Shown one piece after another: positions 1-14,325 of a DNA stretch of 16,497 nt. The notes below the pieces were generated by a model. It had not been told where the DNA came from, did not search any database, and saw nothing but the letters and a program-made list of their open reading frames with translations. Origin of the DNA: a virus; UHGV virus genome UHGV-0097332, one strand, 5' to 3'. The position numbers and the translations under genes were made by a program. The first letter of the stretch is position 1. The number at the start of each line of letters is the position of its first letter.

Positions 1-89
1 GCGTTATCACGGTAATGATTAACAGCCCATGACAGGCAGACGATGATGCAGATAATCAGAGCAGAGATAATCGCGGTTAACCTGCTCAT
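1..89 (-). CDS. Rz: Rz i-spanin, N-terminal part (runs off the window start)
   Basis: Minus-strand ATG at 89-87 overlaps the endolysin stop (ATGA). Translation [29 protein letters not shown] matches the signal-anchor N-terminus of lambda-family Rz as I recall it. Position directly after the endolysin fits. Confidence 0.8.
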
Positions 90-583
90 TGCAGCCCCCA
101 CAAACAGACTTCACGCTCAATATCACGACGGGTCATCAGCCCTTTCCATTGCTTACCGCCAGCGTATGTCCAGCGACGTAGCTGGTCACATGCGCCTTTG
201 ATATCGCCCTGGTTTATTTTGCGAAGAAGCGTCGATGTTCTGAAATTGCCTGCACCCACGTTGTAAACGAACGAGTAAAGAGCGCCGCGCGTTGTTTCCG
301 GTATATCGACTTTGATGTACGGGTTAATTTGTCTGGCGACCGTGGCAAGGTCTTTATTCAGGAGGGCTTTGCATTCTGCTTCGGTATACGTTTTACCGGG
401 AATGATGTCTTTTCCTGTATGCCCGTAACATACAGTCCATACACCAACTATGTCTTTGTAAGGATTATGTCTCACACCTTCCAGACCATCGTTACCACTT
501 GGGCCAGTGATTAACACAGATGCTATGGCAATAGCCCCACCACCAATAGCAGCAGCAACGGCTTTTCGTAATGATGGAGGCAT
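86..583 (-). CDS. R: SAR endolysin (T4-lysozyme-like, phage-21 R type)
   Basis: 165-aa ORF. N-terminal Gly/Ala-rich weakly hydrophobic helix ([20 protein letters not shown]) typical of a signal-anchor-release domain, followed by a lysozyme core. Recalled near-identity to the phage 21 endolysin. Start overlaps the holin stop. Confidence 0.93.
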
Positions 584-798
584 TATTCACCTCTCGCAGC
601 CTTTCGTCTGTCTTCTCTGATTTTGAAATACAGATTTGTCAGACAAGTGAGAAAACCCAACACAAGGCTTCCAAGCACTCCAATCGCAGCCCACTGTGAC
701 GGACTGACCTGATCCAACCACTGCAAAAACCAGTATCCTGCACTACCAGCAGATGTTCCGTAGGCAATGCCAGTTGAGATTTTGTCCATTGATTTCAT
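583..798 (-). CDS. S: Pinholin (class II holin, S21 type) with dual-start motif
   Basis: 71-aa ORF with two transmembrane helices and N-terminal MKSM (Met1/Met4 dual start expected to give antiholin and holin). GGAGG ribosome-binding site upstream. Lies immediately upstream of the SAR endolysin. Confidence 0.93.
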
Positions 799-916
799 AG
801 CAACGCCTCCGCCAGTAACGGATTGCGTAGTTCTTATATTGGGAAGGGGAAAAAAGAAGGCCGCAGCGTAACTATCACTGATGAATTCAGGATAGCCAGT
901 GGCTACGGCTCAGTTA

Positions 917-992
917 TGGTGCTGGTTAACGGACTTGAACCGCTACCCATTCGCTTACAAGGCGACCGCCCTACCATTGGAGATAAACCAGC
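917..992 (-). tRNA. tRNA-like gene, anticodon UGU (Thr) by hand folding; 76 nt with encoded CCA
   Basis: Minus-strand sequence GCTGGTT...GGTTCAAGTCC...AACCAGC-A-CCA. It has a 7-bp acceptor stem, U8, GG in the D-loop, a T-arm AGCGG/TTCAAGT/CCGTT, and anticodon loop CTTGTAA. The D-stem and the top of the anticodon stem each carry a mismatch, so it may be divergent or degenerate. Confidence 0.5.
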
Positions 993-997
993 ATATT

Positions 998-1072
998 TGG
1001 CGGGACAGCGTGGACTCGAACCACGATAAGAAGGTTAACAGCCTTCCGTAATGACCTTTATACGACTGACCC
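998..1072 (-). tRNA. tRNA-like gene, anticodon GUU (Asn) by hand folding; 75 nt with encoded CCA
   Basis: Minus-strand sequence GGGTCAG...GAAGG-CTGTTAA-CCTTC...CGTGG-TTCGAGT-CCACG-CTGTCCC-G-CCA. Anticodon and T arms are perfect; the acceptor stem has one T-T mismatch and the D-arm is atypical. It lies 5 nt upstream (in transcription direction) of the other tRNA-like gene and abuts the tR' U-tract. Confidence 0.5.
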
Positions 1073-1134
1073 AAATAAAAAATCCCGAAACCGTTGTGCA
1101 GGCTCTAACTATTACCTGCGAACTGTTTCGGGAT
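1073..1134 (-). terminator. tR' terminator (3' end of the short pR' transcript, lambda 6S RNA)
   Basis: 11-bp inverted repeat AATCCCGAAAC (1080-1090) / GTTTCGGGATT (1124-1134), followed on the minus strand by TTTTTTATTT. Matches the recalled lambda tR' sequence CCCGAAAC...GTTTCGGGATTTTTTAT. Confidence 0.8.
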
Positions 1135-1269
1135 TGCATTTTGCAGACCTCTCTGCCTGCGATGGTTGGAGTTCCAGACGATACGTCGAAGTGACCAACT
1201 AGGCGGAATCGGTAGTAAGCGCCGCCTCTTTTCATCTCACTACCACAACGAGCGAATTAACCCATCTTT

Positions 1270-1304
1270 GGGTCAAATTTACCCAACTTTATTCAAAAAG
1301 TCAA
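1270..1304 (-). promoter_or_regulatory. Late promoter pR' with Q-utilisation (qut) region
   Basis: On the minus strand: -35 TTGACT (1304-1299), 17-nt spacer, -10 TAAATT (1281-1276). Lies just downstream of Q and about 190 nt upstream of tR'. Matches the recalled lambda pR' sequence. Confidence 0.75.
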
Positions 1305-1346: not shown

Positions 1347-1970
1347 CTAACGCGTGACCGCATTCAAAATGTTGTCTGCGATTGACTCTTCTTTGTGGCA
1401 TTGCACCACCAGAGCGTCATACAGCGGCTTAACAGTGCGTGACCATGTGGGTTGGGTAAGGTTGGGGATTAGCATCGTTACAGCGCGATATGCGGCGCTT
1501 GCTGGCATCCTTGAATAGCCGACGCCTTTGCATCTTCCGCACTCTTTCTCAACAACTCTCCCCCACTGCTCTGTTTTTGCTATATCAACCGCACGACCTG
1601 TACCGTGGCAATCTCTGCATCTTGCACCCTGTGTCGCGGCACTACGGCAATAATCCGCATAAGCGAATGTTGCGAGCACTTGCAGTACCTTTGCCTTAGT
1701 ATTTCCTTCAAGCTTTGCCACACCACGGTATTTCCCCGATACCTTGTGTGCAAATTGCATCAGATAGTTGATAGCCTTTTGTTTGTCGTTCTGGCTGAGT
1801 TCATGCTTACCGCAGAATGCAGCCATTCCGAATCCGGCTTGTGATTGCGCCATCCCCATAGCAGCCATCACATCAGTACCGGAAAGAGAGTCAGAAGCCG
1901 TAGCCCGTGGTGAGTCGCTCATCATCGGGCTTTTTGGCGAATGAAATTTAGCTACGCTTTCGAGTCTCAT
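1347..1970 (-). CDS. Q: Late-gene antiterminator Q (lambda type)
   Basis: 207-aa ORF MRLESVAKFHSPKSPMMSDS... with a Cys-rich zinc-binding segment (CRDCHGTG...CGRCKGVG). Matches lambda Q as I recall it. Sits directly upstream of pR'. Confidence 0.95.
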   Translation of the reverse strand: MRLESVAKFHSPKSPMMSDSPRATASDSLSGTDVMAAMGMAQSQAGFGMAAFCGKHELSQNDKQKAINYLMQFAHKVSGKYRGVAKLEGNTKAKVLQVLATFAYADYCRSAATQGARCRDCHGTGRAVDIAKTEQWGRVVEKECGRCKGVGYSRMPASAAYRAVTMLIPNLTQPTWSRTVKPLYDALVVQCHKEESIADNILNAVTR

Positions 1971-12007: not shown

Positions 12008-12303
12008 ATAAATTACTCTCTTACTGTAGGGGTGAATAGAGTTTATCCGATTTCTCGCTGTAGGGGTACTCGAGAACCACCGAGCCTGATGTGGTTAAAA
12101 GACAGGCATACGAATAAACACTGCACTGTGTATTCATTCCAACGAGTGAATACACGGAGCAATGTCGCTCGTAACTAAACAGGAGCCGACTTGTTCTGAT
12201 TATTGGAAATCTTCTTTGCACTCCAATGTGAGGGCCTTTTTATATGCATACCAATAACGCTTCACTCGAGGCGTTTTCGTTATGTATAAATAAGGAGCAC
12301 ACC

Positions 12304-12444
12304 ATGCAATATGCCATTGCAGGGTGGCCTGTTGCTGGCTGCCCTTCCGAATCTTTACTTGAACGAATCACCCGCAAATTACGTGACGGATGGAAACGAC
12401 TCATCGACGTACTTAATCAGCCAGGAGTTCCCAAAAATGGATAA
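12304..12444 (+). CDS. cIII: CIII (FtsH/HflB inhibitor), 46 aa, ending at TAA relative to the 54-aa lambda protein
   Basis: AAGGAG ribosome-binding site 7 nt upstream. MQYAIAGWPVAGCPSESLLERITRKLRDGWKRLIDVLNQPGVPKNG matches lambda CIII residues 1-46 as recalled. The stop is TAA where lambda has a Ser codon; the out-of-frame downstream codons would still read NTYGYPD. Confidence 0.85.
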   Translation: MQYAIAGWPVAGCPSESLLERITRKLRDGWKRLIDVLNQPGVPKNG

Positions 12445-12743: not shown

Positions 12744-13424
12744 ATGGGAACTGCGACATTAATACTCGGTGAATCTGGCACCGGAAAGTCAACCAGCATG
12801 AGAAATATCAATCCAGAGGAAGCAATACTTATAAAACCAATAGGCAAGCCGCTACCATTTAAATCAAAAGACTGGCTTGCATGGGATGCCAGAGCAAAAA
12901 AAGGAACCGTAGTTACCACTGACAAATGGCACGTAATAGTTGCTGTAATTAAGCGTGCTCACGAATACGGAAAAAGAATCGTTATTGTTGATGACTTCCA
13001 GTATGTGATGAGCAATGAGTTTATGCGCCGCTCAGAAGAAAAATCGTTTGATAAATTTACTGAGATAGGCCGCCACGCATGGGAGGTGATTAAGGCTGCA
13101 CAGGATGCACCTGATGACCTGAGAGTCTATTTTCTTGCACATACCGAAGAAACCCCTATGGGGCGCGTGAAAATGAAAACTATCGGCAAAATGCTGGACG
13201 AGAAAATCACTGTCGAAGGCATGTTTACTATAGTTCTTCGCACTCTTACCCACGATGACCAGTTCTTTTTCACCACGAAAAACAACGGTGCAGACACTGT
13301 TAAATCCCCAATGGGAATGTTTGATTCCAATGAGATTGATAACGATCTCTCTTTCGTCGATGCCACTGTTTGTGATTACTACGGCATCAATAATGTTCAT
13401 CAAATTAAGGAAAACGCCGCATGA
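12744..13424 (+). CDS. P-loop ATPase, RecA-like core (putative Sak4/AAA_24-type recombination protein)
   Basis: 226-aa ORF. Walker A GESGTGKST at residues 9-17 and Walker B IVIVDDFQ. Size and position (where lambda has its Red genes) suggest a Sak4-like protein; the family assignment is from memory. Confidence 0.65.
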   Translation: MGTATLILGESGTGKSTSMRNINPEEAILIKPIGKPLPFKSKDWLAWDARAKKGTVVTTDKWHVIVAVIKRAHEYGKRIVIVDDFQYVMSNEFMRRSEEKSFDKFTEIGRHAWEVIKAAQDAPDDLRVYFLAHTEETPMGRVKMKTIGKMLDEKITVEGMFTIVLRTLTHDDQFFFTTKNNGADTVKSPMGMFDSNEIDNDLSFVDATVCDYYGINNVHQIKENAA

Positions 13425-14031: not shown

Positions 14032-14325
14032 ATGCCAGCGCCTCTGTATGGTGCGGATGACCCGCGCCGCTGTTCCGGCAATTCCGTATTGGAGGTGCTG
14101 GATAAATTCAGAAAAAACTACGACCTGATAATGTCGCTACCGCAGGAAACGAAAGAGGAAAAGGAATTTCGCCATTGTATATGGCTTGCAGAGAAAGAAG
14201 AACGCGAGCGAATTTACCAGACATCAATCCGACCATTCCGCAAAGCCACATATACCCACTTCCCTGAAATTGACCCACGCCTGCGTAATTACCGCTCACG
14301 CTATGGCGCTATCAGTAATGACTGA
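14032..14325 (+). CDS. Hypothetical 97-aa protein
   Basis: ORF with a plausible ribosome-binding site, in the same orientation as the operon; no family recognised. Confidence 0.5.

Follow-up and report, generated by a model that had tools for sequence, protein, structure and literature searches.

What are two tRNA-like genes doing in a lambdoid phage at a site past the late terminator and ahead of the lysis genes, and are they working genes or the remains of such genes? The locus lies near one end of a 16.5-kb stretch of viral DNA (UHGV-0097332; the whole stretch is referred to here as the window). A first-pass annotation, made from the sequence without database searches, had proposed two tandem tRNAs on the late strand, with UGU and GUU anticodons and encoded CCA ends, and had left it undecided whether they were divergent functional tRNAs or decaying relics.

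The identity of the two genes is clear. ARAGORN calls only two tRNA genes in the window, both on the minus (late) strand: a 75-nt tRNA-Asn(GUU) at 998..1072 with its anticodon at 1039-1037, and a 76-nt tRNA-Thr(UGU) at 917..992 with its anticodon at 959-957. Rfam and alignment support both calls, as does a covariation table for the Asn gene. Against the RF00005 gathering threshold of 29 bits, tRNA-Asn scores 55.3 bits (E = 8.7e-10) and tRNA-Thr 48.0 bits (E = 9e-8), so that neither is sub-threshold. The encoded CCA ends of tRNA-Thr and tRNA-Asn appear as plus-strand TGG at 917-919 and 998-1000, respectively, and the 5-nt spacer AAUAU (993..997, minus strand), which runs from the CCA of tRNA-Asn to G1 of tRNA-Thr, is together with AACAU one of the two common forms found when variants are counted across the family. 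Both anticodon loops (CUGUUAA in tRNA-Asn, CUUGUAA in tRNA-Thr) are 7 nt long with U33 and a purine at position 37, both D loops have G18 and G19, and the T arms, GGTTCGAGTCC in tRNA-Asn and GGTTCAAGTCC in tRNA-Thr, carry the T-loop motif GTTCRA. Asparaginyl-tRNA synthetase recognises G34, U35, U36 and G73, and its threonyl counterpart in E. coli recognises G1-C72, C2-G71, G35 and U36; all of these elements can be read in the corresponding window tRNA. The non-canonical features that had been noticed earlier are also there, in the form of an acceptor-stem U4·U69 mismatch (window 1069/1005) and a D-stem U13·U22 mismatch in tRNA-Asn, and of a D-stem U10·C25 mismatch in tRNA-Thr, which in addition has G27·A43 at the top of its anticodon stem. 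Both features are genuine tRNA genes and members of RF00005.

The surroundings are those of a lambdoid late operon transcribed from the minus strand. A lambda-type Q antiterminator of 207 amino acids (1347..1970; Pfam PF03589, E = 3.6e-57, with homology to lambda) is followed by the late promoter pR' (TTGACT-17-TAAATT, 1276..1304), which was located by promoter scan in a region 98.2% identical to that of lambda, and by a leader (6S RNA) of ~195 nt that ends at the lambda-type intrinsic terminator tR' (1073..1135). The tR' hairpin (1135-1081, predicted at -26.3 kcal/mol by RNA folding) leads into the U-tract UUUUAUUU at 1080-1073, and G1 of tRNA-Asn, at 1072, adjoins this tract directly, just where the pair had been placed at the outset. 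Then come the spacer, tRNA-Thr, a conserved box directly 3' of it (857..915, minus strand; blastn and alignment) that is common to lambda (93%), phage 21 and Sf6, a phage 21-type S21 pinholin of 71 amino acids (583-798, minus strand; PF04971, E = 8e-36) and a SAR-type endolysin of 165 amino acids (86-583, minus strand; PF00959, E = 5.9e-48). A Q-independent promoter dedicated to the tRNAs was considered and dropped, as a promoter scan of the interval between tR' and the tRNAs gave no candidate. With the genes lying just past tR', the layout implies that their substantial transcription would need Q-mediated antitermination from pR'. Antiterminated polymerase would pass tR' and go on to transcribe the tRNAs and the lysis genes, and host RNase P, together with enzymes that trim 3' ends, would then presumably release the tRNAs.

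How did the pair come to lie here? The window phage is a mosaic lambdoid phage. Window positions 1400-1075, covering the 3' end of Q, pR', the 6S RNA and tR', are 98.2% identical to lambda by blastn, whilst positions 1096-561, covering the tRNAs, S21 and the start of R21, are 97.6% identical to phage 21. These two homologies overlap at 1096-1075, in the 3' half of tR', and as this half is common to phage 21 it marks the left mosaic junction. From 915 to 857 the sequence is again lambda-like (93% identity), in keeping with the earlier remark that the flanks resemble the lambda Q-S region, and this box bounds the exchangeable segment on the right. Flanked in this way by the tR' end shared between lambda and phage 21 and by the downstream box, the tRNA pair is a cassette of ~159 bp between two boundary sequences conserved among lambdoid phages. 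Bounded by the tR' U-tract and the ~60-bp box, it moves as a module and can follow a Q module of lambda type or one of phage 21 type. In lambda the site holds 163 bp of unrelated sequence, overlapping orf-64. The earlier statement that lambda has no tRNA here was correct, and the idea that a decayed pair might survive in the lambda Q-S region was rejected, with no call from ARAGORN and no cmscan hit at E <= 1.

The cassette is not new: it is the already known late-operon tRNA pair of phages 21, Sf6 and SfI, and the expectation that other lambdoid phages carry tRNAs at this site is borne out by the annotations of these phages and others. In phage 21 (OL657228, CPT_21_64 and CPT_21_65), as in the window, tRNA-Asn(GUU) precedes tRNA-Thr(UGU) on the late strand between the terminator and the holin gene, with the same spacer length and the same site upstream of S21/R21, and in the curated record tRNA-Asn follows the late terminator by one base. 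The cassettes are 97.4% identical over 156 nt. tRNA-Asn is 100% identical in the two phages, which aligning the pair with host and phage tRNA genes brought out, and tRNA-Thr is identical in its acceptor stem, anticodon arm and T arm; what phage 21 lacks are three changes in the D arm (U10, G23 and G26). It differs also in having its own type of upstream module, where the window has Q, pR', 6S RNA and tR' of lambda type. The same tRNA-Asn is found in Sf6, ST64T and JLK-2012. In Sf6, SfI, BTP1, HK446, Kapi1, mEp506 and phiv205-1, a set of P22-like and lambdoid phages, the cassette is 96-99% identical and occupies the same site, none of the seven having U10 or G23, and the last four share with the window the junction with a lambda-type tR'. 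The text of the Sf6 record describes the tRNAs as "similar to phage 21", and the SfI genome paper reports tandem Asn(GUU)/Thr(UGU) tRNAs downstream of Q in SfI and also in Sf6, ST64T, PS3 and phage 21 (PMC3636060). As a discovery the pair carries little weight: dozens of phage records and hundreds of E. coli genomes already annotate it, and a function of its Thr member was published in 2025. What remains, namely the part played by tRNA-Asn, the conserved U4·U69 mismatch, expression in the native setting and the window's Thr allele, is incremental.

Whether the genes are functional or decaying was addressed with a family sample of ~175 tRNA-Asn and ~150 tRNA-Thr copies drawn from IMG/VR contigs and reference phages. 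The tRNA-Asn copies fall into two lineages, types A and B, together with a variant found in Klebsiella phage Mulock, and the lineages differ by ~10 compensatory stem changes. Double changes that preserve pairing are seen at 6:67, 7:66, 11:24, 27:43, 28:42, 29:41, 49:65, 50:64 and 51:63 (the search pattern itself fixed 30:40 and 31:39, which are uninformative on covariation), and the acceptor stem does not otherwise differ across the lineages. The pair at 13:22, U·U throughout type A, becomes C-G between lineages. Position 4:69 is never Watson-Crick, being U·U in 169 of 175 copies and U·C or U·G in the rest. Such a pattern is the mark of selection acting on a structured RNA in which a mismatch is conserved, and not of decay. 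tRNA-Thr shows compensatory changes at 3:70, 5:68 and 6:67 in the acceptor stem and at 51:63 in the T stem, and G27·A43 is kept in 132 of 133 copies. Taken with the experiments on the tRNA-Thr of phage 21 described below (PMC12445682), the stem covariation and the conserved U4·U69 and G27·A43 mismatches show that the tRNA pair family is functional, not decaying. Decay does occur in some tRNA-Thr lineages: ST64T-type phages have a 4-nt deletion in the anticodon arm and give no Thr call with ARAGORN, which does not call tRNA-Thr in JLK-2012 either, whilst tRNA-Asn is intact in all of these. Of the two possibilities first offered, then, functional tRNAs stands for the family, and the relic option is left only for the window's own tRNA-Thr allele.

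A function for the Thr member comes from work on P2 Old. Govande et al. (NAR 2025) found that this protein kills lambda-infected P2 lysogens by cleaving host tRNA-Thr(UGU), the product of thrU, in both strands of the anticodon stem, at paired CNG motifs at nucleotides 28-30 and 40-42 (PMC12445682). Phage tRNA-Thr(UGU) genes rescue such cells in that they are resistant to cleavage and restore ACA decoding, and the rescue requires the UGU anticodon (PMC12445682). Among them, tRNA-Thr21 from phage 21 protects against P2-OLD and is almost completely resistant at Site 1, a property ascribed to a shorter anticodon stem and to altered base pairs at the cleavage sites (PMC12445682). When the OL657228 annotation is taken as the sequence of tRNA-Thr21, the anticodon arm of the window tRNA-Thr (GUCGC-CUUGUAA-GCGAA) proves identical to it. 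At positions 28-30/40-42 both have UCG/CGA where host thrU, with its anticodon stem ACUGA/UCAGU, has CUG/CAG. The window gene has each sequence feature associated with resistance: the UGU anticodon, a stem shortened by G27·A43, and loss of the CNG pair. Resistance to cleavage and rescue of cells expressing OLD and Gam were shown for the phage 21 allele, and the window copy departs from it in the D arm, at three positions.

The best explanation of the locus, to which we give a probability of roughly three in four, is that it is this known cassette, in which tRNA-Thr would serve as a nuclease-resistant stand-in for the single host tRNA-Thr(UGU), with tRNA-Asn probably playing an analogous part. 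On this reading, the Toprim nuclease P2 Old would destroy the thrU product during P2-lambda interference, the phage tRNA would resist cleavage, as the phage 21 allele does through its shortened stem and its lack of paired CNG motifs, and ACA decoding would be restored, as it was in the phage 21 experiments with an anticodon arm identical to that of the window. One observation counts against an account based on nuclease evasion, which is that a second lambdoid tRNA-Thr lineage has a full stem with CNG motifs (CAG/CUG). A further point concerns the phage itself. It encodes Abc2 (14032-14325; PF11043, E = 6.6e-64) rather than Gam, and Abc2 gave no activation of P2-OLD (PMC12445682), so P2-OLD may not be a pressure on this particular phage.

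One alternative concerns the window's own copy of tRNA-Thr, which may be a recently damaged allele, non-functional or hypomorphic, a relic in the making beside an intact tRNA-Asn. Relative to the family consensus it has G10U (window 983), A23G (970) and A26G (967). G26 is a common polymorphism (23 of 121 IMG/VR copies), whereas U10 or G23 occurs in none of the 121; a search of 340 E. coli genomes (best match 97.4%) and of metagenome contigs did not turn up the exact U10/G23 allele either. Elsewhere the D stem does not vary, with G10-C25 and U12-A23 in 133 of 133 copies; in the window, U10·C25 and U12·G23 mean that an intact 4-bp D stem is lost, which lowers confidence in the function of this allele and not in its identity as a tRNA. 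The Rfam score falls from 61.5 bits in phage 21 to 48.0 (a loss of 13.5 bits), the free energy of the cloverleaf goes from -23.1 to -17.8 kcal/mol, a weakening of 5.3 kcal/mol, the Boltzmann weight of this fold drops from 0.09 to 4e-6, and the predicted minimum free energy fold is no longer a cloverleaf. The nearest relative, phiv205-1, shows only three differences over 296 nt, and that two of these, U10 and G23, should fall inside the eight D-stem bases has p ~0.002. The uncalled tRNA-Thr genes of ST64T-type phages and JLK-2012 offer a natural precedent. Since the two private D-stem substitutions weaken the cloverleaf, the window copy may be a hypomorph. Nevertheless, it still scores well above the ARAGORN and Rfam thresholds, the C11-G24, U12·G23 and C13-G22 pairs can still form, and neither the acceptor stem nor the anticodon arm nor the T arm is altered. 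Moreover, the energy model ignores tertiary contacts and modifications that help tRNAs to fold in vivo, and U10 and G23 could be sequencing errors. The window tRNA-Thr may thus be impaired or may be misread, and we regard a damaged or hypomorphic allele as a serious possibility that falls somewhat short of an even chance. We also considered relaxed selection on the D stem linked to the possession of Abc2. This idea is weakened by HK446, which has Abc2 yet keeps the consensus G10 and A23; the cassette is found in both Gam-carrying and Abc2-carrying phages.

Does the reading of tRNA-Thr as a resistant replacement extend to tRNA-Asn? Host tRNA-Asn(GUU) is itself a substrate of P2-OLD, although it is cut more slowly (PMC12445682). 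It is also a secondary target of AriB, the nuclease of the PARIS defence system, for which tRNA-Lys(UUU) is a prime target, as is tRNA-Thr(UGU) (PMC12409363). Belukhina et al. found that substitutions at U39 and at position 41 block cleavage of tRNA-Lys by AriB, and that variant Lys, Thr and Asn tRNAs of phage T5 jointly neutralise PARIS (PMC12409363). Compared with host asnT, the phage tRNA-Asn has a rebuilt anticodon stem (GAAGG/CCUUC against GCGGA/UCCGU), with AAG/CUU in place of CGG/CCG at positions 28-30/40-42 and C39-C40-U41 in place of U39-C40-C41. At the AriB site, U36-A-A-U39-C40|A41, tRNA-Asn reads UAAC39-C40-U41 where the host has UAAUCC, and tRNA-Thr UAAG39-C40-G41 where the host has UAAUCA, so both phage tRNAs are altered at the two positions at which substitution blocks AriB. 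Judged by these sequence rules, we infer that the phage tRNA-Asn lacks the cleavage motifs of both P2-OLD and AriB. Because host tRNA-Asn(GUU) is cut by both nucleases and the phage copy seems to have neither motif, tRNA-Asn is probably an analogous nuclease-resistant replacement.

Each member of the cassette would then have a counterpart among the targets of Toprim tRNA nucleases and would lack the features by which those targets are recognised, which raises the possibility of a two-tRNA counter-defence cassette. We put this forward tentatively, as an idea with the balance somewhat against it. The comparison with T5 is instructive on both sides. The window pair has two of the same three anticodons as the PARIS-resistant tRNAs of T5 and, like the T5 variants, it is changed around the AriB site, having G or C rather than U at position 39; the lambdoid copies are changed at position 41 as well, where the tRNA-Thr genes of T5 and P1 keep A41. 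The T5 sequences are, however, unrelated, T5 is a lytic phage with an array of 20+ tRNAs, and the AriB resistance of the lambdoid tRNAs is predicted. Unlike the T5 set, the pair has no tRNA-Lys(UUU) partner, either in the window (ARAGORN) or in any lambdoid array examined. For this reason the pair does not make up a complete anti-PARIS set, and by itself it should be unable to neutralise the PARIS system of B185. P1 and P7 provide a second parallel, with tRNA-Asn and tRNA-Thr of the same two anticodons in tandem, arranged in the same order and 2 nt apart, in the different context of a position upstream of tciA. The P1 tRNA-Thr is 78.5% identical to that of the window and has a full 5-bp anticodon stem, and the P1 tRNA-Asn is unrelated in sequence, with a host-like UAAUCA site. 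Were the counter-defence idea correct, U4·U69 and the disappearance of the CNG and UAAU-C motifs would be adaptations that evade such nucleases, and a basal level of transcription past tR' might even shield lysogens.

A rival explanation is codon supply, which would mean that the pair chiefly boosts decoding of ACA, which depends on single-copy thrU in the host, and of AAY in phage genes. In the SfI genome ACA usage is 17.3 against 7.1 in the host (PMC3636060). We counted codons in the annotated coding sequences of HK446, a complete relative with the cassette, in the long ORFs of the window and in a 49-kb sample of K-12. ACA makes up 15.6% of Thr codons in the K-12 sample, 32.0% in the long ORFs of the window (p = 7e-7) and 35.8% in the early genes of HK446 (p = 1e-9), and Asn codons are more frequent in HK446 late genes (51.5 vs 40.4 per 1000, p = 3e-4). 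The companion tRNAs in related arrays, which read the classic rare codons AGA, GGA and AUA, favour the same explanation. Phage 933W and other Stx phages have tRNAs, ileZ-argN-argO, between Q and stx. Like the window pair, these lie 3' of Q and of the late terminator, with the lysis genes further downstream; unlike it, they decode AUA, AGA and AGG, and they have classically been explained as a supply for rare codons. The difficulty is one of timing: the tRNAs lie in the late transcript, yet the late structural genes of HK446 are not enriched in ACA (17.2% of Thr codons, p = 0.47 against the K-12 sample), and the genes that are rich in ACA are early ones, translated before Q acts. Nor are Asn codons rare, and E. 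coli has four asn tRNA genes. Codon supply also leaves unexplained the loss of nuclease motifs from the anticodon stems and the conservation of G27·A43. As the main function it seems to us unlikely, but it does not exclude the reading of the pair as resistant replacements, with which enhanced ACA decoding for ACA-rich phage genes would be compatible as a secondary benefit.

In a further reading the tRNAs are mainly RNA punctuation and decoding is incidental: an RNase P cut would divide the lysis mRNA from the pR' leader and tR' and would set its 5' end and stability. This would fit the position of tRNA-Asn one base past the U-tract in both lambda-type and phage 21-type contexts, where processing would strip the terminator hairpin from the late mRNA. 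It is most improbable, however: in lambda and HK97 the same late operon works with no tRNA at this site, the anticodons, synthetase identity elements and CCA ends are conserved although punctuation alone would need none of them, and phage tRNA-Thr needs its UGU anticodon for rescue (PMC12445682).

The cassette is widely distributed. By megablast the region is matched in 96 phage records, and the pair is annotated as tRNA-Asn/tRNA-Thr in phage 21, Sf6, SfI, BTP1, Kapi1, mEp506, vB_SosS_Oslo and others. It is present in about 369 of 5,426 complete E. coli genomes in RefSeq, where PGAP annotates both tRNAs. A loose scan of genome contigs for the 3'-end pattern turned up chiefly unrelated tRNAs of cellular origin, spread over many phyla. 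In the records of HK446, phiv205-1, HF4s, phi458 and SEN22 the tRNAs are present and unannotated, and surveys of phage tRNAs that rely on annotation will under-count them as a result.

The acceptor-stem mismatch U4·U69 of the tRNA-Asn (window positions 1069 and 1005) is retained in both tRNA-Asn lineages across the comparison loci L012-L203: the 4:69 position is U·U in 169 of the 175 copies and a Watson–Crick pair in none. The D, anticodon and T stems differ between the lineages by compensatory changes, while U4·U69 persists. The second of these lineages, type B, comes from IMG/VR contigs L131-L203 (L132, L135, L131 and L165, for example), where the tRNA-Asn gene is either solitary or lies within an array of several tRNAs. 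Its array partners are tRNA-Arg(UCU), tRNA-Gly(UCC), tRNA-Phe(GAA), tRNA-Met/Ile(CAU) and a 75-nt tRNA-Thr(UGU), the last with a complete 5-bp anticodon stem in which the CNG motifs are retained.

The tRNA-Thr of the window carries two private substitutions, at nt 10 and nt 23 (window 983 and 970), both of them in the D stem (p about 0.002 for this clustering). In canonical tRNAs, these two nucleotides participate in base triples. Decay, a single mutational event or a sequencing error are all possible explanations for the clustering. At nt 14 (window 979), the first base of the D-loop, members of the lambdoid tRNA-Thr family have C, U or G; A14, the usual base at this point in tRNAs, is absent from every family copy compared and is present in the tRNA-Thr of P1 and in host thrU. 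The phage 21 tRNA-Thr is functional in vivo despite its non-A nt 14 (PMC12445682).

Degeneration of the tRNA-Thr is seen in ST64T (L007 676-760) and the related Salmonella phages ST160, SW-70 and ST-29, in which the anticodon arm has suffered a 4-nt deletion. ARAGORN calls no tRNA at this site and the Rfam score of the ST64T copy is 42.1 bits; the adjoining tRNA-Asn is 100% conserved. P1 (L010 1425-1578) has the same Asn-then-Thr tandem as the window, located upstream of tciA. In JLK-2012 (L008 601-834), tRNA-Asn, a Thr-like gene and tRNA-Gly lie immediately upstream of a tciA homologue. The Thr-like gene, which ARAGORN does not call, looks like a hybrid whose 3' half resembles host thrU. The Asn/Thr pair is under-annotated in reference phage genomes, since the deposited records of HK446 (NC_019714 / JQ086372), phiv205-1, HF4s, phi458, SEN22, 118970_sal4 and others have no feature over it.

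In the pL operon of the window, the cIII start is marked by a Lambda_thermo thermoregulator element (12291-12349, plus strand; full-length Rfam match, 88.5 bits, E = 7.8e-21). The anti-RecBCD slot is occupied by a P22-type Abc2 (14032-14325, plus strand; PF11043, E = 6.6e-64) in place of lambda Gam, with an ORF encoding an AAA_24/AAA_22 ATPase (12744-13424) as its neighbour. The P2 Old nuclease is reported to be triggered by Gam, not by Abc2 (PMC12445682).
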